DNA of 64,000 nt from a phage, in assembly GCA_026066175.1 (NCBI GenBank), contig GCA_026066175.1_4721.1; one strand, given 5' to 3'. Under the pieces are notes generated by a model. That model was not told the DNA's origin. It was given only the letters and a program-made list of their open reading frames with translations, and made no database searches. Positions 1 to 45,890 of this stretch are shown piece by piece. Every line of letters starts with the position of its first letter. Position 1 is the stretch's first letter. A program made the position numbers and the translations under genes.

Positions 1-31
1 TCGCTTCGTCGAGGTAGGGGAGGATAACACT

Positions 32-1786
32 TTATGCCGCTACATACCCAGGCCAACGTTCTCTTGGCCAGTTTGTTGCGCCCTGTCCAACGTTGTCCTT
101 ACCAGAAGTTACATTACTTACGTCCCAACCACTAAGATCCTGGTTAAATGCGGTGTTGTTGCGCATCATGAGGTCGATCCTACGTAACGATTGGGTATTC
201 CAGCCGGAAATGTCTTGGTTGAATGCCGCGTTGTAAGCAAACATGTTAACAACGTCTTGTAATTTTGAAGTGTTCCAGCCGCTTATATCGCTATTGAACT
301 GCATGTTCGAGAACATACTGCTAGCGTTGACAAGACTACCTGTTTTCCAGTTAACCAGCTTGTCCCCATCAAGTGCAACGCAGCTACTGAACATGTAACT
401 CATGTCGTTAACTTTGGATACATCCCATTTATCTAACCCGTTACCAACGAACTCGTAACAAGCTTGGAACATCCAGCTCATATCGGTAACCTGGCTCACA
501 TTCCATTTGCTAAAGTCGAGGTTGAGTTTTGCGCATCCGGAGAAGGTTTTATACATACTGGTGATACGACTAACATCCCATTCTTGAATGTTAGGATCAT
601 TAAGTATAGATAAGAATTTGAACAATTCGTCTAACGACGTCCATTTCTCTGGGATACGGTTTGGTACGGTACGGAGTGATGAAAGGTTACTGATTGACGG
701 AGAGCGGAACATACCGTTATCCCAATTTACGATTTCTGTAATGTTGGACCCACGGATCGTTTGGCGTCCGTTACCATTATACACAGACCCTGTTGCAGTT
801 ATTGTATATTCGTTTGTATCAGCATACGTATATTCAGCCTGTGTAGGCCACTCACCTATTACATCCCTATTCCCGTCGCCCCAATCAATGGAAATATCTA
901 TCCAGCCATCAAGATCTAGGGTAACGGTCCCGCCATTGGTCTTCAGGACGTATTTACCTGCATTGTCGGTATAATAACAAACAATCATCGCACCGTACAG
1001 GTTACCAATTTGCCAATCATCCTTTTGAGTTACCGCGATATGTGCTGTGCCACGTTGTAGGAAAAGAACCGTACGGTTCTCGTCAGTCTGTAATGTGGTT
1101 AATGCTTGAGCCTTATCATCGTCGGTAATTTCACCAGCTTCCACTAAAGCACTTAACATTCTTTCGAAGTAATCGATGGGTAATTGGCGTCCTACAGACA
1201 TATCAACTGATGGAACAGCGAGATCATCCAATGCGGCGGCAGTTGCAAGCACTAATGATCCATTGGTGGTGTCTGTTTCTTGGAGGTAATGCAGTCCCGT
1301 AATCTGGTACGCTTGAATGATTGTAATCAGATCCAGCGTATCGTTAATGACCTGTACTTGTAAATGTCCAGACCAAACATAGCTGCTTTCAGCAATCGGT
1401 AATTCGACCGACTGAATACCCGATGTTTCAAAACTGATCTTCTTATTAAGATCGGCTTCCAGGAAATCAACCGCGAGGTCGAAATTTATACCGTACTTTT
1501 CAGCGATGGAATCTATGATGTTCCTGAAAGCAACATCGGTACTTACGATGAATCGTAAAGGGATTCCTGTGAACGCATTAGCAATATCTCGACGAACATA
1601 CGTAAGTGATTGTTCGAAGAAATAGGGACTGTTATCTCCAGGTTTGATGGTTACCTGACACATTTCAGGATGTTCAACTGGGATGAACGATTCAAATTTA
1701 ACATCGGATTCCTTCAACGAAAGCATGTTCTTCCGGTTTACCAGCGCCAGAAGATCGGCTTTCCATCCAGGATAAACAGTAGACAT
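32..1786 (-). CDS. Fibre / receptor-binding-like protein with C-terminal DUF285-type repeats
   Basis: C-terminal tandem repeats of the form FNQDISGWNTS / WDVSKVNDMSYMF typical of DUF285 repeats; N-terminal ~150 aa paralogous to the N-termini of 45949-47403 and 5434-6300; start moved to MSTVYPGW (GGAGTG 5 nt upstream). Confidence 0.55.
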   Translation of the reverse strand: MSTVYPGWKADLLALVNRKNMLSLKESDVKFESFIPVEHPEMCQVTIKPGDNSPYFFEQSLTYVRRDIANAFTGIPLRFIVSTDVAFRNIIDSIAEKYGINFDLAVDFLEADLNKKISFETSGIQSVELPIAESSYVWSGHLQVQVINDTLDLITIIQAYQITGLHYLQETDTTNGSLVLATAAALDDLAVPSVDMSVGRQLPIDYFERMLSALVEAGEITDDDKAQALTTLQTDENRTVLFLQRGTAHIAVTQKDDWQIGNLYGAMIVCYYTDNAGKYVLKTNGGTVTLDLDGWIDISIDWGDGNRDVIGEWPTQAEYTYADTNEYTITATGSVYNGNGRQTIRGSNITEIVNWDNGMFRSPSISNLSSLRTVPNRIPEKWTSLDELFKFLSILNDPNIQEWDVSRITSMYKTFSGCAKLNLDFSKWNVSQVTDMSWMFQACYEFVGNGLDKWDVSKVNDMSYMFSSCVALDGDKLVNWKTGSLVNASSMFSNMQFNSDISGWNTSKLQDVVNMFAYNAAFNQDISGWNTQSLRRIDLMMRNNTAFNQDLSGWDVSNVTSGKDNVGQGATNWPRERWPGYVAA

Positions 1787-1824
1787 AAGCACTCCAATCA
1801 TGGGGCGGTAACCGCCCCCATCAG

Positions 1825-4800
1825 TTAAATTGTCGGTTTCACGTCGCGTAATAGGGCAATATAATAGCCTAATCCTCGGAGGATCTCCCCACTCCAGAAA
1901 CCAAAATACATTCCGTCTCTGCCGAGATTAGCACTATCTGGTGCAGGACTCCACCCACCATTCATTGCGTCATCAACGGTGTAATGATTGATGTAGTTTT
2001 CAGCGATCTCGTTATAAACGTTAACAGCAACAGGATAGCCTTTATCGTTGGGATGTCCGTACAACATCGCTAACGACGCACCCGCTAGCCATAATCCTGC
2101 CATGTGACCAGTAAAGTCATTCGGGATAAACGCAGGCGGTTTCTCCATTGGAAAATCCGTTGGTGATTGATAAGCATTTTCCTGCTGGAACGTATATAAG
2201 AAATCGATCCAATGACTGATGTAATGGGTTAACTTCTCAGGGACAGTTAATTTACGATCGATCAATCCCGCGTAAAGCCGTACCGCTGAAAAGAAAGCCC
2301 GCGGCTGATAACCAGACCATGCTGTTTGATCGCCGAAGTGGTACATCGTAAAATCATTGACCTTTGATCCGCTTGGCGCATCCCAACGATCCCACACGTA
2401 CGCACTCGCACCCGGCCCTAAAACACCGAACTTCTGATAGTACCATTGCTGTGAGTCATACCAGAAATCCACAACATTCTGAATCATGAGGTCACGACGT
2501 TCAGCCGAAACGTCCATATCCAGGAAGACCCACGGATGCTGGTAACCCGGATAAGGCTGACCGCGCCAGCTGTCGAAAGTCGGTGCGTTAGGGATATAGT
2601 TGTTAGAAAACGGAATAATACCTGGGGTATAAGGTAGTGGATCAAGACGTTGGTTAACGATCGTGCAGTCACCAACACGTAATGTTCCCTCCGCTTCAAA
2701 GGTTGCTTTTAATGTAAACAACATGGTATATCCGTCATCCGTGGCGTAAGTTGATGGCGGATTGTTGATAGCGTAGAGCTTAAATACCCCTTCAGCGATA
2801 TCGCTATCATCTGGCAAGAACAGAATTTCAGTTGAGCCATCACCCCACACAGGTGCAGAAGGTTTAGGGTCAGTATCAGCATGGTTCGGTTGATACCCTG
2901 AGAGCGTCCATCCAGTAGCCGAAAGCGTCAATGTATTTCTTGCTGTGGTGGCCGGTAGCATCTGCCACCATCGCCAACCATTTGCATCTTCTACACGAAC
3001 GTTGTAGTCAATCGACGCGAAATAACTGACCTGCCTTACGATCTGTTTTGCCGTTGGATTGAATTCAAATTGCCCGCCTGCCGCAGTAAGCTGCGCTTTT
3101 AAGAACAGTCCGTCACAGGAATCTTCAACAGCGTCGCTGAACTCCGTGGTGATTGCCACGTCATCCTTCCAACCGACTTTATCCGCCGATATCAATACAG
3201 AACCTGTAACAGCATCACCGGTTGGCGTTGAAGCTTCATCAACCGCATCAGCAGGAATCAACGCGCCTATTTTGAAATCCCATTCTTTCGGTTCAACGCT
3301 GGAAGGTAATACCAGCTTGTACGTTTTGGCTTTCGCTTCGGTTTTGTCCAAAGAAAGCGATAGTGAGATCTCAACCGGAATTGCAACGCCCGCTACATCT
3401 TTACCTCCGCAGGTTACACGAAGAATTGAATCGCGATTGACGCGGAACGGAATGGCCTGCTGTTCAAGGTAAATCTGTGCCGAAGATGCTTGAATCACGA
3501 TCCAACCGTCAACATCACGTGTGATCGTGAACGGTGCTTTCGATGGATAGGTATACGTGTAAGCGATACCGTCGGTGTCGTAACGATCGGTTCCTTTTAC
3601 CTGGCGGAAGAACTTGTCATTCGCATCAATGCGGGTATATTCCTCAATCGTAAACAAAGATGCCTTATACGCTTTCTGATAGCGCTCCTGCTGCGTTAAA
3701 CGGTATAAGGTGTAGGCTGCTTCACAAAACCACTGTTCAGCGTCTGATGCGTTTCCCATGTAGTCTCTGGTGACCGGTACCTGGATTGGTCGGTTATGCT
3801 GACACTCATTCGTTTTAATGAGATATCCACCATATTCAACAGGTACACGGGGTGCCCATGCAACCAAATAAGAACCGGTAACGGATTTATCTTTGAGTAC
3901 GATAGTCCCTACCTCGTCATCCGCACACGCCTCAAGATCTTCACCGTCCGCTGTTACGTAACGTTTTGTTCGCAACGCCAATTTCTCAATGGGGAATACA
4001 GTACCTTTTGTATTCCAGTCAATCGTCCCATTTTCATTCGTCTTGAACACATCCGCATTTAGATTTTGCCATCCAAGCTTACCCTCATAGACCTGAACAA
4101 CAAGATCCATGTATTCCCCGAACGTTGGTGAACCGTGAGGGATCTTACCGATTCCGTTGGTAAACACAACCGCGGTATCATGGAAACCACCATGTGTTGG
4201 GTAATCGTCTTTCGCAAGCGGGTAATGAGCCAACACCGGCTGTTTCCCATTAACAATCCAGTTTGCTATCCAACGTGTTGGGGTATCCGGTGGTTCAAGT
4301 CCTGCATAGAACGCTTTTACGTACGCGTCGAACGATGATTCCGCTAACGTAAGAAAATGGGCTTTAAGCTGGGTATCGTCGGTCGTATGACTGAAAATGC
4401 TTGCACCCAGGATCAACAACGATTGTCCTTCCGTTGTCGCGTCGCCATCCGGTTGTGCTTCCTGACGCGTTGCTGCGATAAAGTGACGGTTATTCACCAA
4501 CACACCGCTTTCATTCAAGACGTAATGATCGGTTTCAGGATCGGTAAACGTTCCTGTATTTCGCGTTAAGAAGCGAGCGTGGCCGTAACCAACGAAATTC
4601 ACCGGAGACGCTGTGATCATCCATTTACCGATAAGTTGTGCGACGTCCTTATAACGTTCCGACGCCGCGATCTGTTTTACGTACCAGTCTTGTCGATTGA
4701 ACGTCCAAAGCAGGAAGTAATACGTCTTATTGATCTCCATTACCGGAAACGTGGGCGTCAACGGTTCCAACGTTAAATAGTTACTCCAGTCAATCTGACC

Positions 4801-5421
4801 ACCAACAACCGACGGGGTGATTTCAAGCAGTTGGCACCATTCGTAACGTTTCGGTTTCGCATCGTAGGTAACTGGCAATGACTGTTTATACGTTCCGACA
4901 CGGTTCAGGTTGTACTTCTTCCTGGCCGATCCTAAATCAACGTAAATGCTAGAACTCGAACTCGCTCCGTATGTACCTAAACCACCCAACGTTGAACGGT
5001 ACAATGAAATAAACAACGTATCTTCCCAGTAGGGATTATCCTCGGTAGGTTCTAACGCAATCTGAGCGGATATCGAGTTCCATGTACCGAGTTGATACGT
5101 TGCGTCGAGAGATTCATCCGTGAAGTACGACTCTGGTAAGCTGAGTTGATACCTTTCGTTAATTAATGCTAACGCGGCACGACCCGTAATATCTTCATTA
5201 CCAGTTTCTTTCTTTACGATCGCGCCGAATGGAAACAACGTTGCAAATGAACGTTTTGGTTTATTTACGGTTACCGTTCCTGTGTAGCTTCCTGTTCCCG
5301 TGAGTTGTTGGCCATCAACTGTTGCGGTAACGTTGATAGTCGCATCTGGAACGTTCGTTTTGTTGAGCGTGTTTAGTTGCTCGATCAATTCGTGTTTATC
5401 GTCGGGTAGAAATGTTGCCAT
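1825..5421 (-). CDS. Large (1198 aa) putative virion structural protein, tail fibre/tailspike-like
   Basis: Very long ORF lying between two fibre-domain paralogs; Trp/Tyr/Gly-rich C-terminal region; no catalytic motif recognised. Confidence 0.35.
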   Translation of the reverse strand: MATFLPDDKHELIEQLNTLNKTNVPDATINVTATVDGQQLTGTGSYTGTVTVNKPKRSFATLFPFGAIVKKETGNEDITGRAALALINERYQLSLPESYFTDESLDATYQLGTWNSISAQIALEPTEDNPYWEDTLFISLYRSTLGGLGTYGASSSSSIYVDLGSARKKYNLNRVGTYKQSLPVTYDAKPKRYEWCQLLEITPSVVGGQIDWSNYLTLEPLTPTFPVMEINKTYYFLLWTFNRQDWYVKQIAASERYKDVAQLIGKWMITASPVNFVGYGHARFLTRNTGTFTDPETDHYVLNESGVLVNNRHFIAATRQEAQPDGDATTEGQSLLILGASIFSHTTDDTQLKAHFLTLAESSFDAYVKAFYAGLEPPDTPTRWIANWIVNGKQPVLAHYPLAKDDYPTHGGFHDTAVVFTNGIGKIPHGSPTFGEYMDLVVQVYEGKLGWQNLNADVFKTNENGTIDWNTKGTVFPIEKLALRTKRYVTADGEDLEACADDEVGTIVLKDKSVTGSYLVAWAPRVPVEYGGYLIKTNECQHNRPIQVPVTRDYMGNASDAEQWFCEAAYTLYRLTQQERYQKAYKASLFTIEEYTRIDANDKFFRQVKGTDRYDTDGIAYTYTYPSKAPFTITRDVDGWIVIQASSAQIYLEQQAIPFRVNRDSILRVTCGGKDVAGVAIPVEISLSLSLDKTEAKAKTYKLVLPSSVEPKEWDFKIGALIPADAVDEASTPTGDAVTGSVLISADKVGWKDDVAITTEFSDAVEDSCDGLFLKAQLTAAGGQFEFNPTAKQIVRQVSYFASIDYNVRVEDANGWRWWQMLPATTARNTLTLSATGWTLSGYQPNHADTDPKPSAPVWGDGSTEILFLPDDSDIAEGVFKLYAINNPPSTYATDDGYTMLFTLKATFEAEGTLRVGDCTIVNQRLDPLPYTPGIIPFSNNYIPNAPTFDSWRGQPYPGYQHPWVFLDMDVSAERRDLMIQNVVDFWYDSQQWYYQKFGVLGPGASAYVWDRWDAPSGSKVNDFTMYHFGDQTAWSGYQPRAFFSAVRLYAGLIDRKLTVPEKLTHYISHWIDFLYTFQQENAYQSPTDFPMEKPPAFIPNDFTGHMAGLWLAGASLAMLYGHPNDKGYPVAVNVYNEIAENYINHYTVDDAMNGGWSPAPDSANLGRDGMYFGFWSGEILRGLGYYIALLRDVKPTI

Positions 5422-5433
5422 TTATACACCCCT

Positions 5434-6300
5434 TTAATCGTAACTAAAATAAAGCTGGCTGCTAATTCCGCTATCTGGATGCGGTTTTAACACGAGTACG
5501 GATTCACCAAACGATGGTTTTACGGGTGCTGAGGGACCGCTCGTGATACCGTTATAAACGACGGTAGCGTTCGTGACAAGTTCCCACGCAAGGGTATAAT
5601 CCATAGACGACAATGCCGTTGCTAAACAGTAAGCTGCACGTCCTGTCGGTGATGTTCCAGCCGCGAGCCGACGTATCGCACCTTGTATAGGCACATCAAG
5701 TAATATCCCGTAGGTACTTAACGCGTGAATACCGGATTGCGCTTGATCTTCAGGGTAGTACGATGTTAACGGTGTTTTCACCATAAACAACTCGGTGAGG
5801 TTATTGCTCTGTGCTTTCTTCGCAACGAATTGGAAAGTCCCATACCACGATTCTGAGGCGTTGGCACGAACAGCAATTGAAACCGTCTTCTCTTGGGTTT
5901 CGAATACGATCGATTGGGTTAACGTATCCTGATCGAATATTGCTAAATCAATCACTAATCCGTATTTTTGAAACAGCTGGCTTAAACAATCCGCGACGGT
6001 GGTTGCGTTAGCGACGATAACATAAGGTTGATGATGAATGAACAGTTTACTGATATCGCGTCGTTGGAGATAAATGGAGACAGGATCGTCGGAATAATAC
6101 CGTGATTGTGGCGCGGGATTAATGGACAAGCGTATACGTCCAGAGTTACCGTACCAGTCAGGCGTTATCGTGATATCCGATAAGGTTAGCGGTTGGTGTA
6201 TATCTTGGTTTAATCGAGAGAGTACATCCTCTTGCCATGTTCGTTCTGGGTACATTTTTTGACCTCGTAACTTATAAATATAACGGAGGACTGAATTCAT
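5434..6300 (-). CDS. Protein carrying the fibre N-terminal-like domain only
   Basis: Segment ITITPDWYGNSGRIRLSINP...YLQRRDISKLF...LFQKYGLVIDLAIFD aligns with TIKPGDNSPYFFEQSLTYVRRDIANAF...IAEKYGINFDLAVDF of 32-1786. Confidence 0.45.
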   Translation of the reverse strand: MNSVLRYIYKLRGQKMYPERTWQEDVLSRLNQDIHQPLTLSDITITPDWYGNSGRIRLSINPAPQSRYYSDDPVSIYLQRRDISKLFIHHQPYVIVANATTVADCLSQLFQKYGLVIDLAIFDQDTLTQSIVFETQEKTVSIAVRANASESWYGTFQFVAKKAQSNNLTELFMVKTPLTSYYPEDQAQSGIHALSTYGILLDVPIQGAIRRLAAGTSPTGRAAYCLATALSSMDYTLAWELVTNATVVYNGITSGPSAPVKPSFGESVLVLKPHPDSGISSQLYFSYD

Positions 6301-6309
6301 ACCATGGGA

Positions 6310-6371
6310 GAGGCGAAAAAAAAACGAAAAAATAGGAAAACGGTGTTCATCCTTTTTAGGGGATGAACACC
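6310..6371 (-). terminator. Intrinsic terminator
   Basis: 11-bp stem GGTGTTCATCC / GGATGAACACC followed on the minus strand by a long U-rich tract. Confidence 0.65.
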
Positions 6372-6382
6372 GGATAACAAAA

Positions 6383-6961
6383 TTAATGAGGAATGAGAGA
6401 ACTTAATTCGCTTTCTTCGATAACGAAGGTTTCGTTTTGGTTATCGAGATTCGTCAGCAAGACTTGTCCGACCGTAAAACAATCACCGCCTTTCTTCGGT
6501 ACCCAAACCGGTTCGTTGGTTACCGAATCAGGATACCATTTAAAGCGGTTGGTGTCCAGGAAGAACGCTGCTTTGTTTTCATTATCGGTAGAACGATAAC
6601 TGATCAATGCAGGCCACTCAATCCATGTCTTGGTGCACGGCACATGCAGGGGATACCACGCACGCCAATACTTACCAGGACGTTTTGGATCCTCCCAGTA
6701 TTCTGCCGTTAGCACGGCATCTTTATACTGTTTCTGCATCAGCATCTCAAGAACAGGTTCGTTGCCGAGCGGTAAACGCACCAATTCTCTTTCGACGTAC
6801 GCGGTATCGTCAAAAACGTCTCGATGTAAGTGGGTGGATACCCCAACAGGGGGTTTCGCGATCGTTGGTTTACGTTTCTGCTCTTTACGACGTGTATACA
6901 GAAACAATCCGATCGCTACTGCCACGAGTAAAACAAACAACACTACATTAATCCAATTCAT
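6383..6961 (-). CDS. Membrane-anchored hypothetical protein
   Basis: N-terminal hydrophobic helix VVLFVLLVAVAIGLFLY followed by basic RRKEQKRK; strong intrinsic terminator immediately downstream. Confidence 0.5.
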   Translation of the reverse strand: MNWINVVLFVLLVAVAIGLFLYTRRKEQKRKPTIAKPPVGVSTHLHRDVFDDTAYVERELVRLPLGNEPVLEMLMQKQYKDAVLTAEYWEDPKRPGKYWRAWYPLHVPCTKTWIEWPALISYRSTDNENKAAFFLDTNRFKWYPDSVTNEPVWVPKKGGDCFTVGQVLLTNLDNQNETFVIEESELSSLIPH

Positions 6962-8569: not shown

Positions 8570-8623
8570 GGCGGTTTCCTTTTTAACTAGGATGATTGCA
8601 TATACAGGGTTTAACGGCATAAA

Positions 8624-8641
8624 CCCTCCCCGGAGGGAGGG
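8624..8641 (-). terminator. GC-rich stem-loop with TTTATGCC tail
   Basis: CCCTCCC / GGGAGGG stem; minus-strand tail TTTATGCCG. Confidence 0.5.
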
Positions 8642-8658
8642 CATACGAACAGTTCGAT

Positions 8659-9153
8659 TTACGTATGTCGGCGTTTGCCAAAGAAAATGTGATTATCTAC
8701 CACGGTGATGTTGGTAGCATGCTTTTTGAAATGTTTGGGGCGAAGGTGTTTCGCGTTGAAGAATACGGCTCCTTTAGTTGGATCAGCTTTTCGATAGGCG
8801 GGCATATCGTTACGTAAGACAGCAACTTTACGCGCGATTGCTCTTGCACGGTCGAAAGCGACTTTATCGGTAATGACGATCCTTTTACGTTTTGTCCAGG
8901 GGAATTGACCTCTTTGCAGAACCACATCTCTGACGTTCGTAGGGAATCGGGAATCCATCGAACGGTTATGTATTAAAAACGCCACGGAGTATTGTCCTTT
9001 CAACGATTCGCCTCTGGCCTCCATATACACGGCACAGGCGACGATCTCTTTCCGACAATCTATTCTAGGCCCTGCGTTCACCGATGCTTGACTGAACGGT
9101 GTGATAAGTAACATAACAAGCCCTAAAACCAACGTGTGTAAAATACCTTGCAT
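8659..9153 (-). CDS. Secreted cell-wall hydrolase, SleB / Hydrolase_2-like
   Basis: Signal-peptide-like N-terminus MQGILHTLVLGLVMLLITPFSQASV; motifs YMEARGES, HNR..RFPT, RGQFPW match the SleB-type hydrolase pattern; GAGGT upstream of the internal Met. Confidence 0.55.
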   Translation of the reverse strand: MQGILHTLVLGLVMLLITPFSQASVNAGPRIDCRKEIVACAVYMEARGESLKGQYSVAFLIHNRSMDSRFPTNVRDVVLQRGQFPWTKRKRIVITDKVAFDRARAIARKVAVLRNDMPAYRKADPTKGAVFFNAKHLRPKHFKKHATNITVVDNHIFFGKRRHT

Positions 9154-9398
9154 CTTAATAACCTCACGATAAGGTGCTGTCCACTGGCGTTTTCTTGTTG
9201 TCAACGCGTGCTGTTAATCAGCGGGCAGCAGGTTAGCGTCAGATGTTTGCCCGACATCCACGACAGAAATAAACGGTACTGAAAATACGGTCTCCTCTGG
9301 TTTGGCAATAAACATAACGTTGGATAACAGAACCCATTTCCCGCATCCAACGCGGTAAAGGTGTACATCGTTTGAATTCATATAGTTTCTCAAAGATG

Positions 9399-9701
9399 TT
9401 AACCTCTACCGTCGAGCCACAGGTTATATTTCTCACGGGTAGTCGGATCACGATAGATACGACGATACCTTAATTCCGGTAATAACCCGGTTCGTACCAA
9501 CTCATCCGTTATCTTCCGACGTCGTTCTACGCCATCATGAATACGACGTAACTCACGGAAGTTAAGCGGTGTTTGTTTCATCAGAATTCCCATTACAACC
9601 GGGCGATGATCGATTTCGTACAGTGACAATACTCCACGTATTTCGTCTAACACGCGTTCTCGATCGATCAATATACGGTCGTGGTATTTTAACTGTTCCA
9701 T
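9399..9701 (-). CDS. Hypothetical protein
   Basis: ORF in array; start tentatively placed at MEQLKYHD. Confidence 0.3.
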   Translation of the reverse strand: MEQLKYHDRILIDRERVLDEIRGVLSLYEIDHRPVVMGILMKQTPLNFRELRRIHDGVERRRKITDELVRTGLLPELRYRRIYRDPTTREKYNLWLDGRG

Positions 9702-10066
9702 AACGACCACTCTTGTTCTACACGTCGACATACCGGTAATAAACACCACCAACATAAGGCGCTAAACGATAACAGCGCGAGAATAGCTGTGATTCCATTC
9801 AGGTGTCCGCTGATTTGCCATGAAGTAAACATGAATAGAACATAACCTAAACCATACCCGATGAACCGTTTGATGTTATATACCGATTGTACACAGATGT
9901 ACAGCAACGGGATTTGCCCAACAATAGAAATAACGGATCGTACCACAAAGTTAATACGCGCTGACGTATCAATGAAATCCATTGTAACCGCATTAATACC
10001 AATCAACGTAAGTGTGATACCGAGAAAGATTTTTATATACGTGCTGAATTTAGTTGCTTTTTGCAT
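9689..10066 (-). CDS. Multi-pass membrane protein
   Basis: Several hydrophobic segments (IFLGITLTLIGINAV, ILALLSFSALCWWCLL). Confidence 0.4.
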   Translation of the reverse strand: MQKATKFSTYIKIFLGITLTLIGINAVTMDFIDTSARINFVVRSVISIVGQIPLLYICVQSVYNIKRFIGYGLGYVLFMFTSWQISGHLNGITAILALLSFSALCWWCLLPVCRRVEQEWSLWNS

Positions 10067-10277
10067 TGTGCTTATTCCTACCTACATTCCTCAACAATGT
10101 AACGATAACGAATACCGCTATCATCAAGAAGATGAACCATAACCCAACGTTGATTCGGGCTGCAGGTTCATCGACGAGAAAGAACATCCATCCGCAGAAC
10201 CCGATGACAATCCATACCAACACCATCCCGGTTAATCCACGTAACAGCAGATGTCCCATAATCCCTCCTGATTTCAT
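10050..10277 (-). CDS. Small membrane protein (holin-like by size and topology only)
   Basis: 75 aa with two hydrophobic stretches (VLVWIVIGFCGWMFFLV, LWFIFLMIAVFVIVTLL) and a basic C-terminus. Confidence 0.4.
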   Translation of the reverse strand: MKSGGIMGHLLLRGLTGMVLVWIVIGFCGWMFFLVDEPAARINVGLWFIFLMIAVFVIVTLLRNVGRNKHNAKSN

Positions 10278-10444
10278 TTATCCTGATACAACGATAACTC
10301 CAGTCGTAGAAATACCGCTAACGCAATAGACAGTAACGCTACGCGTACCCACATCCCACCTTGAACGCTGTTATACAGCATAAAGACCAGAGCGATGCCG
10401 CCCATATGCAGGCGGCACTTATCGAAAAGTGTTGGTTTATACAT
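10274..10444 (-). CDS. Small membrane protein (ORF absent from the supplied track)
   Basis: Hand translation: MYKPTLFDKCRLHMGGIALVFMLYNSVQGGMWVRVALLSIALAVFLRLELSLYQDK; stop overlaps the start of 10050-10277 (ATGA). Confidence 0.3.
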   Translation of the reverse strand: MYKPTLFDKCRLHMGGIALVFMLYNSVQGGMWVRVALLSIALAVFLRLELSLYQDK

Positions 10445-10664
10445 AGGAAATTAATCGTCGTGTGATTTTTACTTTACCTTTACCTGGGCCTTTCTTGCGA
10501 CGATTCAACAGACGGATGCGGTATCCGGTTACGGTATCCCCATCGTAATCAGCGCGTAACGATAACGAGAGAGCACGATGTTCCCGATCAACGCCCGGGT
10601 TGTTATAGAAACGATTGAAACTTAAAAGATGATTACTTGGAATCATTGTGTTATCCTTACTCAA
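10437..10664 (-). CDS. Small basic protein with KKGPGKGK motif
   Basis: C-terminus RLLNRRKKGPGKGKVKI resembles three small ORFs at 30600-31193. Confidence 0.35.
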   Translation of the reverse strand: MSKDNTMIPSNHLLSFNRFYNNPGVDREHRALSLSLRADYDGDTVTGYRIRLLNRRKKGPGKGKVKITRRLISYV

Positions 10665-11024
10665 TTATCGGCCCAGGTCGAGGTATTCAGCACCAACCAC
10701 GGTATTAGTGGTAGGATCAACCAATACGCGAACACGCGCGTAAGTACGATACCCTGGATTGAACACTTCGAAATCCGCAACACGCAGTTTCACTTTAGGG
10801 TCGGTTGGACTTTTCACACCTGGCAGTTCTTTCGGTTCACCGAAGTCTACGCCCATTTCTTCAAGGTCATTTGACGTAAACTCATTCATGGCCATATAGA
10901 CACGTGAGGCTGTATTGAATACATCACGGCTGTAGAGGAAATCGGTTTGGTTAGCATGTACAGAACCAATAAAACCACCGAACAGAATAGCAACAGCAAC
11001 AAACAGTTTTGTTAACGTTTTCAT
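10665..11024 (-). CDS. Secreted hypothetical protein
   Basis: Signal-peptide-like N-terminus MKTLTKLFVAVAILFGGFIGSVHA. Confidence 0.5.
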   Translation of the reverse strand: MKTLTKLFVAVAILFGGFIGSVHANQTDFLYSRDVFNTASRVYMAMNEFTSNDLEEMGVDFGEPKELPGVKSPTDPKVKLRVADFEVFNPGYRTYARVRVLVDPTTNTVVGAEYLDLGR

Positions 11025-11062
11025 GAGCGTTTCCTTAATAACTTAAATAGAACAATATCGTA

Positions 11063-11485
11063 TTAACGTACAGCTGCTACACCGCGTGAGCATGCCTGGA
11101 TACCATCGGTGTTCACGATGATGGTTTCGTTAAACGCGCGAATACGTGCACGACGGGCTTCTTTAAGGCTGGCGATAGCGCTAGCAACTTCGTTAACGTT
11201 AGCGAGACTTACGACCGGAATCAGACGAGCGTCAGGGCTGCAGATGTTCAAGCCTTGATAAATACGTCCGTTAATTCCTAAGGTATCAGACATCGGATAA
11301 TGCGCGCGGCATTGATTTTGGCCCATCACCACAAATGAACGATCGGAGAGACCAATTTGGTAACGACCGTCTTCACTGTAGGTGTAGCAATTGTGTCCAC
11401 GAAGCATCCAGTTTGCTTGTGCTTGAACGCTTACGAAAGCCAGAGATGCAACGATAGCCAGTACGATGTTTTTGATCAGTTTCAT
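11063..11485 (-). CDS. Secreted hypothetical protein
   Basis: Signal-peptide-like N-terminus MKLIKNIVLAIVASLAFVSVQA; AAGGAA upstream of the start. Confidence 0.5.
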   Translation of the reverse strand: MKLIKNIVLAIVASLAFVSVQAQANWMLRGHNCYTYSEDGRYQIGLSDRSFVVMGQNQCRAHYPMSDTLGINGRIYQGLNICSPDARLIPVVSLANVNEVASAIASLKEARRARIRAFNETIIVNTDGIQACSRGVAAVR

Positions 11486-11569
11486 GATAAGATTCCTTAT
11501 TAAAGATTAAAATGAATATTGAGAAATAAGAGATTGATAAGGCCCTCATCACGAGGGCCTCCGTAACCA

Positions 11570-11878
11570 TTAATTTGCCGAGAAGAAATGCATTATAGCA
11601 TCTACCGGCTGCGGGTTGCTTTCAAATTTGTCGTTAGTAAACACGACGCGCTGTCGTAGGACGTGTGCGGCTATGATATCGCTTTTATCTCCGGCAAGCG
11701 AAACGAAACTCATCGTCCCAGCAGGGATCGCGATTTCGAACGTTGATGTACGACCTTTAGCTTTCTTGATGCTCTGTAAGGTGCTGTTGAGCGTTTCCGT
11801 TTTCTGACCGATCAGAAGACCGGTAACAAAACGATTTTCGATTTTACCAGCAACGTTCATCTTGAATGAAGTTGACAT
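11570..11878 (-). CDS. Hypothetical protein
   Basis: 102-aa ORF followed by the stem-loop at 11541-11559. Confidence 0.45.
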   Translation of the reverse strand: MSTSFKMNVAGKIENRFVTGLLIGQKTETLNSTLQSIKKAKGRTSTFEIAIPAGTMSFVSLAGDKSDIIAAHVLRQRVVFTNDKFESNPQPVDAIMHFFSAN

Positions 11879-11928
11879 AATTACATCCTCTTAATACGGA
11901 TTGATTTTAGATTGATAACAACATAACA

Positions 11929-11947
11929 GCCCTCCGAAGTGGAGGGC
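11929..11947 (-). terminator. Stem-loop terminator
   Basis: GCCCTCC GAAGT GGAGGGC with a U-rich minus-strand tail. Confidence 0.45.
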
Positions 11948-11955
11948 CTGGTTAA

Positions 11956-12267
11956 TTACTTGTAGAAATGACGTAAAACCGTTGCGATAGGGAACAACCC
12001 TGTAACGGTGTTATCACCCGCGAACATCATGTTCGAACCGTTAACCGTGATGAAACGGATATCGGTTGCTGAACCATCGATGGCGACAAATCGCATCGAG
12101 TTAGGTGGAAGATCTTCAACAACATCCTCCAGGTATTCACGGTTTTCAAACGCTTCTTTAACACGACGCATGAAACGAATCAAGGTTCCTTCAGCATCAG
12201 CTTCCAAATGGCCTAAGGTTTCACGATTGTTACGAATAGCGAATACAGTCATCTTAAACATATTCAT
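11956..12267 (-). CDS. Hypothetical protein
   Basis: 103-aa ORF; preceded by promoter-like motif copy 1 and AAGAGGA. Confidence 0.5.
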   Translation of the reverse strand: MNMFKMTVFAIRNNRETLGHLEADAEGTLIRFMRRVKEAFENREYLEDVVEDLPPNSMRFVAIDGSATDIRFITVNGSNMMFAGDNTVTGLFPIATVLRHFYK

Positions 12268-16195: not shown

Positions 16196-16220
16196 TTCTT
16201 TTCCTTCTTATCGGCATAAA

Positions 16221-16239
16221 CCCTCCCATACCGGGAGGG
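16221..16239 (-). terminator. GC-rich stem-loop with TTTATGCC tail
   Basis: CCCTCCC / GGGAGGG; minus-strand tail TTTATGCCG. Confidence 0.5.
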
Positions 16240-16244
16240 TACAA

Positions 16245-33692: not shown

Positions 33693-33766
33693 TTTAGCCT
33701 CCTCTCTTAGCTTCAGAGAATTCTCAAAATCCGTTAGTTTTGATAGACCGAGTAAGACGGCATAAA

Positions 33767-33787
33767 AGCCTCCCTCCATGGGAGGCT
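33767..33787 (-). terminator. GC-rich stem-loop with TTTTATGCC tail
   Basis: AGCCTCCC / GGGAGGCT; minus-strand tail TTTTATGCCG. Confidence 0.5.
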
Positions 33788-33800
33788 TTATTACGATAAT

Positions 33801-40415: not shown

Positions 40416-40946
40416 TTAAAGTGCGTTCAATTCTTCAGGTGTACGTACGGTACGGGTGTTAGGATCAACCATTGCCGGTGTGCCAGCAGGACATTTGCGA
40501 ACATCGATCCGCATCTCAGGTTCGATCGGACGAATACGGTATGTTTTACCGTCATCGGTTAATACCGAAATCGTCAACGCCTGGTTCAGTTCATTAACGA
40601 AGTTCACCAAACGTTGTTGACCTCCTTTCGCCCAGAAGTTAAGATCGGTTTCTCCATTGAAATAGCTGATCCCTTCAGCGGTGCCAATCGTGATCTTAAC
40701 GATGCCAGGATAATCACGAAGAAGAGGTGCTTGATAACCTTCGTCCTCTGTATCCAGTTTTACCCACGCACCACCTGTGGACAAGCAATTAACTTCTAAC
40801 GCGGTTGGTGCACTAACCTCCGCTGATGACCAGGTATACATGGTACCTAGTTTTGCGTGTCCGGTTTCCAGTTCGCTGTAATCCCAAGCCTGTGCTGACG
40901 CGGTAATAAAGAAAGCAGCAAGAAACAACTTTTTCATTCTTTTCAA
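40416..40946 (-). CDS. Secreted hypothetical protein
   Basis: Signal-peptide-like MKKLFLAAFFITASAQA. Confidence 0.5.
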   Translation of the reverse strand: MKRMKKLFLAAFFITASAQAWDYSELETGHAKLGTMYTWSSAEVSAPTALEVNCLSTGGAWVKLDTEDEGYQAPLLRDYPGIVKITIGTAEGISYFNGETDLNFWAKGGQQRLVNFVNELNQALTISVLTDDGKTYRIRPIEPEMRIDVRKCPAGTPAMVDPNTRTVRTPEELNAL

Positions 40947-45854: not shown

Positions 45855-45861
45855 TTAAGAA

Positions 45862-45890
45862 GCTCTGCCCGAAGGCAGAGCTTTATGCCG
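45862..45890 (+). terminator. Terminator after the SNF2 helicase gene
   Basis: GCTCTGCC CGAA GGCAGAGC followed by TTTATGCCGG. Confidence 0.6.

Follow-up and report, generated by a model that had tools for sequence, protein, structure and literature searches.

Small proteins acting at the bacterial envelope are known from several systems that have something in common with the locus described here. Llp of phage T5, Cor and TraT are envelope proteins encoded by mobile elements and act at the outer membrane, and the small proteins Ivy, MliC/PliC and PliG inhibit peptidoglycan hydrolases from the periplasm or from a lipoprotein anchor. For Llp, the blocked receptor is FhuA (PMC9586334). In phage T4, the periplasmic protein Spackle (gp61.3) carries a Sec signal and binds and inhibits the gp5 tail lysozyme of the incoming phage (PMC7677548, PMC7650644). 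The PepSY domains of YpeB, a protein of Bacillus spores, have been proposed to serve as chaperone-inhibitors of the cell-wall hydrolase SleB (bioRxiv 10.64898/2026.06.01.729290), and regulators of the WYL/BrxR type typically adjoin diverse defence cargo (PMC9122601).

The locus analysed here lies in a stretch of 64,000 nucleotides (the window), which derives from a Goslar-like nucleus-forming jumbo phage (Goslarvirus). Its DNA is 77-87% identical to that of Escherichia phage vB_EcoM_Goslar, the only relative found among 50,697 phage records. Because most cytoplasmic defences that target DNA fail against nucleus-forming jumbo phages, a barrier at the envelope is one of the few means of stopping such phages; to our knowledge, almost nothing is known about the exported proteins and the lysis control of these phages. 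The proteins considered are the neighbours A and B, of which relatives were also found in bacterial islands, and C, which is encoded some distance away.

Like Spackle, these are small exported proteins encoded by a phage, and Imm, a membrane partner, is paralleled by the small transmembrane (TM) proteins encoded beside A and B; no sequence or fold similarity was found between A, B or C and the characterised exclusion proteins, T4 Spackle included. Two B paralogues are lipoproteins, which recalls Llp, Cor and TraT, but there is no homology to these proteins, phage A, B and C lack a lipobox and the island lipoproteins carry aspartate at position +2. PliC/MliC exist in soluble and in lipoprotein form, a duality that the B family resembles. 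The difference from these inhibitors is that A, B and C have no Pfam match to them at E ≤ 1 and that the Ivy, MliC/PliC and PliG families are absent from the structural neighbours of A. YpeB differs in being membrane-anchored, with several PepSY domains, and co-operonic with SleB, whereas A and B occur in islands that have no SleB-type gene. The YpjK-YfjS-YfjT genes of Escherichia coli K-12 occupy the same slot of CP4-57, after the WYL-type regulator YfjR, and are likewise small and functionally uncharacterised, comprising membrane proteins, lipoproteins and proteins with a signal peptide; the sequences are nonetheless unrelated, with YfjT scoring E 0.7 against the B profile and YfjS belonging to PF20494.

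Predicted exported proteins of the phage

Signal peptides were identified with a rule set that demands a positive n-region, an uncharged hydrophobic h-region of 8-18 residues, small residues at positions -3 and -1, a total length of 15-32 and no TM segment later in the protein. Among the 88 gene products of the window, exactly A, B and C were positive, with scores of 4.6-6.0 (6.0 for B). The controls were close to zero, with three positives in 202 non-gene ORFs, all of them low-scoring (1.9-2.8), and a mean of 0.27 positives for shuffled N-termini. The original prediction, which placed three classical Sec signal peptides in this DNA, is therefore upheld, and all three ORFs are present on the minus strand where it had located them (Table 1). 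Its grouping of C with the A-B pair is not supported, given that hhalign relates C to B only at E 0.66, that the A and B HMMs and BLASTP give no match and that C lies in a separate, uninformative context.

Table 1. Features of the A/B region and gene C, in window positions
Feature	Position	Strand	Product or sequence	Goslar counterpart and comparison	Remarks
C	40416-40937	minus	173 aa, ATG start	gp154	mechanical ORF 40416-40946
Hairpin	11536-11559	minus	GGCCCTC-GTGAT-GAGGGCC, then TTATC		GC-rich; between upstream gene and B
B	11063-11485	minus	ORF, 140 aa	gp104
A	10665-11024	minus	ORF, 119 aa	gp103
Small basic soluble protein	10437-10646	minus	69 aa	gp102; 70% identity, dN/dS 0.38	directly downstream of A
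Hydrophobic protein	10274-10444	minus	56 aa		one predicted TM segment
2-TM membrane protein	10050-10259	minus		gp101; 84% identity, dN/dS 0.09
3-4-TM membrane protein	9689-10066	minus		gp100; 47% identity, dN/dS 0.30
Soluble protein	9399-9701	minus	100 aa	gp99; 58% identity	last gene of string
SleB-type (Hydrolase_2) cell-wall hydrolase	8659-9156	minus		gp98; dN/dS 0.10	PF07486, 5e-17

Cleavage (marked by a slash) is predicted at VHA/NQ in A, at VQA/QA or AQA/NW in B and at AQA/WD in C. The Goslar homologues would begin, as mature proteins, with GLLDSPEVYDK in gp103, QANWMAR or NWMAR in gp104 and WDYSELETGHAK in gp154. No lipobox, defined as [LVI][ASTVI][GAS]C closing the signal, was found in A, B or C of the window. 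A spanin would be recognised by a lipobox (o-spanin), by an N-terminal TM anchor with a periplasmic coiled coil (i-spanin) or by a lipobox together with a C-terminal TM segment (u-spanin). The three proteins do not have these features, their signals being cleavable and both a lipobox and additional TM segments being absent. Conserved cysteines number four in B and two in C.

The Goslar record calls all three counterparts hypothetical. The dN/dS values against Goslar are 0.23 for A, 0.12 for B and 0.03 for C, and each of the three genes is under purifying selection. Close relatives are few: a search of a 5.8-billion-protein index gave a handful for each protein, on Goslar-like contigs of ~240 kb. 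Against Pfam, PHROGs, NCBIfam, PADLOC and the sequences of the PDB, no significant match was obtained for A, B or C. Literature searches on YfjS/YfjT and on the endolysin, signal peptide and gp104 of Goslar gave nothing that covers these proteins.

Expression of the Goslar homologues can be judged from the LC-MS/MS data of a virion preprint, where Table S4 lists gp104 with 6 peptides and 43% coverage, and gp103 and gp154 with 2 peptides each (10.64898/2026.04.21.720040). For that study, Goslar was propagated on E. coli MC1000. The masses computed from the three Goslar sequences equal those given in that table. In CsCl-purified Goslar, the estimated copies per virion are ~39 for A, ~29 for B and ~11 for C; the same table holds PhuZ (~171) and chimallin (~126), as well as ChmC, thymidylate synthase and an exoribonuclease at levels similar to or above those of A, B and C. 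The homologues of the three proteins are absent from the 28 modelled structural proteins of the virion, and the text is silent on them (10.64898/2026.04.21.720040). Given that PhuZ, chimallin and other non-virion proteins are present in Table S4, we take the detection of gp103, gp104 and gp154 as proving expression and not packaging. More generally, the presence of PhuZ, chimallin and many enzymes means that low-copy entries of Table S4 should be taken as virion components only with further evidence.

Protein C consists of a signal peptide and a 156-aa domain with its two cysteines. Its probable start is the ATG at 40937, which gives a protein beginning MKKLF, has AGGA 11-12 nt upstream and agrees both with the Goslar annotation and with the peptide given in the original prediction; the TTG at 40946 is the start of the mechanical ORF only. 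C is 96% identical to gp154, and no other gene compared with Goslar is as well conserved. A relationship to K-12 YfjT was considered and rejected, BLASTP giving no alignment between the two. C is a Goslar-restricted exported orphan, very strongly conserved and unrelated to A and B, for which a generic role as a putative periplasmic accessory protein is the only assignment possible.

Linkage of A and B in the phage and in bacterial islands

Protein A is composed of a signal peptide and an alpha-alpha-beta4 roll of ~95 aa. In the AlphaFold2 model of the mature protein (pLDDT 92.9, pTM 0.84), two helices are packed on a four-stranded sheet, and the structural neighbours of this model are mostly inhibitor folds of the cystatin, latexin and propeptide type, with no viral structure significantly similar to it. 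Pfam PepSY (PF03413) gives no match for A at E ≤ 1, nor for eight members of the A family at E ≤ 10. The model presents A as a cystatin/PepSY-type roll, a fold common in protein inhibitors, membership of either family not being demonstrable. Compared with Goslar, the mature domain is fast-evolving (dN 0.33) and the signal peptide is not. The sole PADLOC listing of A, GajB at E 0.034 and 10.4 bits, was taken as noise.

Protein B, which is 81% identical to gp104, is made of a signal peptide and a domain of ~118 aa. Across seven sequences of the family, at 13-24% identity, only W4, C11, C37, C60 and C110 are invariant. B is a disulfide-type domain characterised by one tryptophan and four cysteines; its AlphaFold2 model is poor (pLDDT 54). 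Two paralogues are predicted lipoproteins, L008_155 (LLSA/C-D) and L009_443 (LTG/C-D), and with aspartate at +2 they are expected to be retained at the inner membrane. All homologues of A and B that were found have either an SPase-I signal or a lipobox, despite the divergence of the signal sequences.

The relationship between A and B emerges from the searches for their relatives. An exhaustive HMMER search with the profile of mature A gave 12 matches in 1.84 billion representatives, and a search with a subset of more similar family members returned nothing beyond Goslar-type viral contigs and, among ~100,000 species genomes, a single bacterial species. The credible matches are small signal-peptide proteins and P0015, a protein of 336 aa in which the A domain forms the C-terminus. 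The N-terminal domain of P0015 matches B from end to end of B, and the four cysteines of each line up (BLASTP 3e-9, hhalign 8e-6). Among 5,426 complete E. coli genomes, 9 encode a protein 99% identical to this fusion (WP_001348677-like), which also occurs in Entomohabitans teleogrylli.

A profile of B, to which only the phage B proteins and the corresponding domain of P0015 contributed, was then run against 1,773 six-frame ORFs of the window and the retrieved loci. Four further proteins were matched, L009_443 (3e-9), L013_182 (1e-6), L008_155 (7e-6) and L008_139 (6e-5), with the next-best score at 0.86, and all four are encoded upstream of an A homologue within the same gene string. The reciprocal search with the A profile was equally clean. 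It is the profiles that connect the island B-like proteins with B, since pairwise BLASTP between them gives no link. L009_443 was considered as a second B-A fusion and carries the B-like domain only.

A B-like gene upstream of an A-like gene, or fused N-terminally to it, was found in the phage, in L008, L013 and L009 and in the E. coli and Entomohabitans fusions, so that the order B then A is common to phage, islands and the fusion polypeptide; two A homologues, in L003 and L016, have no B partner. The adjacency of the two genes, their natural fusion, the profile results and the constant order are strong comparative evidence for a joint action of A and B in the periplasm. The two form one mobile two-part module, previously undescribed and predicted to be periplasmic. 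What were anonymous hypothetical proteins become a defined and testable unit, with two fusion-linked periplasmic domains and a membrane partner, that would be exchanged between a jumbo phage and WYL-regulated islands of E. coli.

In bacteria, the module is found in enterobacterial integrative islands of the CP4-57 type, directly behind a WYL-domain regulator that matches the PADLOC WYL model at E 6e-20. There it takes the form of adjacent genes, of genes together with inner-membrane-lipoprotein paralogues of B, or of one fused polypeptide. PADLOC gives a significant match for the adjoining regulator only, and none for the A-like, B-like or fusion products of the islands. The backbone is that of CP4-57/CP4-44, with GTPase, DUF932, Antirestrict, RadC, DUF987 and CbeA/CbtA genes; the fusion has genes for TIR, AbiGi and SymE in its vicinity, and CP4-57 of K-12 carries AbpAB and RnlAB. 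None of the island loci contains a Hydrolase_2 gene, which means that the module is independent of the phage endolysin. Beside the A/B genes, DUF4234-type membrane proteins that are homologous to each other (phmmer 2e-32) are encoded at 5835-6158 of L013 and 1559-2143 of L009; they are unrelated to the TM proteins of the phage and may be an island-specific membrane partner.

A different, rare and integrase-associated island is represented by L003, a contig of E. coli assembly GCA_013055565.1; the island is absent from the 5,426 complete E. coli genomes. Its A homologue, P0010, is 51% identical to A and has a signal, MIVKIFLLTALFSCCFSRNVQA/D, unlike that of phage A in sequence. The neighbours of P0010 are an Ape1_N/SGNH lipoprotein, a DUF459 protein and a sulfatase-family transferase, which are envelope-modifying and not defence genes. 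L003 also encodes a homologue of the phage 2-TM protein (22.3 bits, with 0 of 2000 shuffles above 13.4 bits). The region 1-6600 of this contig, in which a multi-TM protein of 407-458 aa is also encoded, looks like a cluster for envelope-glycan modification; an identification of its truncated first gene as MBOAT has no Pfam support.

The phage gene string and the downstream hydrolase

In the phage, B and A head a string in which the genes for the small basic, 56-aa, 2-TM, 3-4-TM and soluble proteins follow in this order, mostly with overlapping starts and stops, the start of the 3-4-TM gene overlapping the end of the 2-TM gene. The hairpin upstream of B likely marks the boundary of the transcription unit. 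No family match was found for the small basic protein in Pfam, PADLOC or NCBIfam, nor for the 100-aa soluble protein in Pfam. The ORF of the 56-aa protein is kept in Goslar, where it is unannotated (L001 about 3878-4051, minus strand; phmmer E 7e-30), and in the Goslar-like contig L018.

The SleB-type hydrolase, encoded 242 nt downstream of the string, is an exported protein that the original prediction had overlooked. It scores 3e-12 against the SleB model TIGR02869, which is under the cut-off of that model, and is 95% conserved with gp98. Its N-terminus, MQGILHTLVLGLVMLLITPFSQA/S, is strongly hydrophobic with no positive charge in the n-region, and is conserved in Goslar gp98. The protein is presumed to be an endolysin exported through Sec or as a SAR protein. 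An enzyme of this type in a nucleus-forming phage raises the question of what restrains its activity before lysis.

Between B and the gp105 homologue (11956-12267), a 102-aa gene at 11570-11878 (minus strand) has no Goslar counterpart. The N-terminus of its product resembles by eye that of the gp105 homologue, which suggests a tandem duplicate. Perfect GC-rich hairpins followed by TTTATG, TTATG or TTATC recur between genes (minus strand 8618-8641, 11922-11947, 11536-11559, 16215-16240 and 33761-33788; plus strand 45861-45887) and may each serve the RNA polymerase of the phage as terminator and promoter in one. Scans of the window for sigma-70 promoters and terminators gave nothing above chance, with 4 promoter-like sites against 12 expected. 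A few genes downstream of the hydrolase, at 6383-6961 (minus strand), a 192-aa protein with no family match carries one TM segment, at its N-terminus, and the basic stretch RRKEQKRK directly after it.

Candidate functions at the envelope

The leading reading, which we hold tentatively, is that A and B form an envelope-level exclusion or defence module, its function being assigned by comparison. The original prediction had proposed superinfection exclusion or receptor masking; for the adjacent pair exclusion is still preferred, here on the grounds that the module follows a WYL regulator in defence-rich islands of the host family, that some versions are inner-membrane lipoproteins and that A has an inhibitor-type fold. 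The module would be located on the periplasmic side of the inner membrane, where the small 2-TM protein encoded downstream would probably cooperate with it. As the inhibitor-type fold of A suggests, it would bind and block a protein target, and the carrier, be it an infected or an island-bearing cell, would be protected from incoming phages at the step of penetration or DNA entry. This would amount to superinfection exclusion of the kind known from Spackle or Imm of T4, carried out by unrelated proteins.

An exclusion or defence function is favoured because the module, in mobile elements of the host family, is cargo of the conflict type, is present in islands that have no phage endolysin, has variants anchored at the inner membrane and includes an inhibitor-type A domain with a quickly evolving mature part, and because Spackle provides a mechanistic precedent. 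Several observations weigh against it. No similarity to a known exclusion protein was found, and Pfam, PHROGs, NCBIfam and PADLOC are empty for the phage and island versions. Non-defence cargo is also abundant near the island modules, and the A homologues of L003 and L016 stand without B, in L003 among envelope-modifying genes. Exclusion genes are usually expressed early, and the small membrane protein genes around A and B, with an exported endolysin 1.5 kb downstream, have the classic look of a lysis region.

A more specific form of the exclusion reading, which we regard as improbable, is that A and B together with the 2-TM protein would be a new, horizontally mobile periplasmic anti-phage module of jumbo phage and islands that blocks envelope penetration or DNA entry. 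What is blocked could be a tail-associated protein that binds or hydrolyses peptidoglycan, or the formation of the membrane vesicle that receives the DNA of a chimallivirus. Goslar virion proteins include one annotated as a putative peptidoglycan domain protein (YP_009820709). For nucleus-forming phages, the penetration stage would be out of reach of cytoplasmic DNA-targeting immunity. If the module does exclude phages, periplasmic defence would gain a new class, and the CP4-57 cargo slot would have a further use.

The lysis-region look leads to the strongest of the other explanations, namely that A, B or both control lysis, keeping the exported SleB-type endolysin inactive, or chaperoning it, until membrane proteins trigger lysis; we consider this unlikely, though worth serious attention. 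With the hydrolase in the periplasm ahead of lysis, such a restraint would be needed, and the strongly hydrophobic signal of the enzyme with its SQA/S site is in line with early export. A and B are on the same strand and in the same neighbourhood as the Hydrolase_2 enzyme, and the overlapping string that they head contains the 2-TM and 3-4-TM proteins, which are holin-like. A variant of this explanation is that A/B would be a periplasmic antiholin like RI of T4. Against lysis control speak at least five island contexts in which A/B occur with no Hydrolase_2 gene, and the occurrence of the 2-TM protein beside A in a non-lytic island as well. The link with the YpeB precedent is weakened by the A family, which gives no Pfam PepSY match even at E ≤ 10, and the link with the enzyme by the 242-nt gap and one more gene that separate it from the string. 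Furthermore, A and B are in the mass-spectrometry table of Goslar and the hydrolase is absent among the rows listed. If restraint of a SleB-type endolysin is true, the module would be the phage counterpart of the YpeB-SleB chaperone-inhibitor pair.

It is decidedly improbable that the module manipulates the host envelope by inhibiting a host periplasmic enzyme, either a protease of the DegP/Prc type or one that remodels peptidoglycan, and thereby stabilises the envelope or exported phage or island proteins through a long jumbo-phage infection. The dominance of cystatin, latexin and propeptide-type inhibitor folds among the structural neighbours of A would fit such a role, as would the Ape1_N/SGNH lipoprotein, DUF459 and sulfatase-family transferase genes beside P0010, and phage and island would benefit equally. 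However, a target is not identifiable, the fold of A is generic, and a family this rare and sporadic (12 in 1.84 billion; one of ~100,000 species genomes) fits conflict cargo better. Packaging of A, B and C into progeny, or their binding to it after lysis, for example to shield receptor-binding proteins from debris, is very improbable: the three proteins were indeed found in Goslar virions purified on CsCl, but with evident carry-over, at estimates below those of PhuZ and chimallin and outside the 28 modelled structural proteins, and cytoplasmic packaging is impossible for a Sec-exported protein, while the island homologues have no virion to join.

Exclusion or defence at the envelope remains the reading under which we would place the module. 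As a further observation on the distribution of the phage, Goslar-like contigs of 247-248 kb with identical or near-identical A and C are filed under assemblies of Escherichia coli O157 and Shigella flexneri, which suggests that jumbo phage, either in a carrier state or as a contaminant, was sequenced along with clinical isolates.
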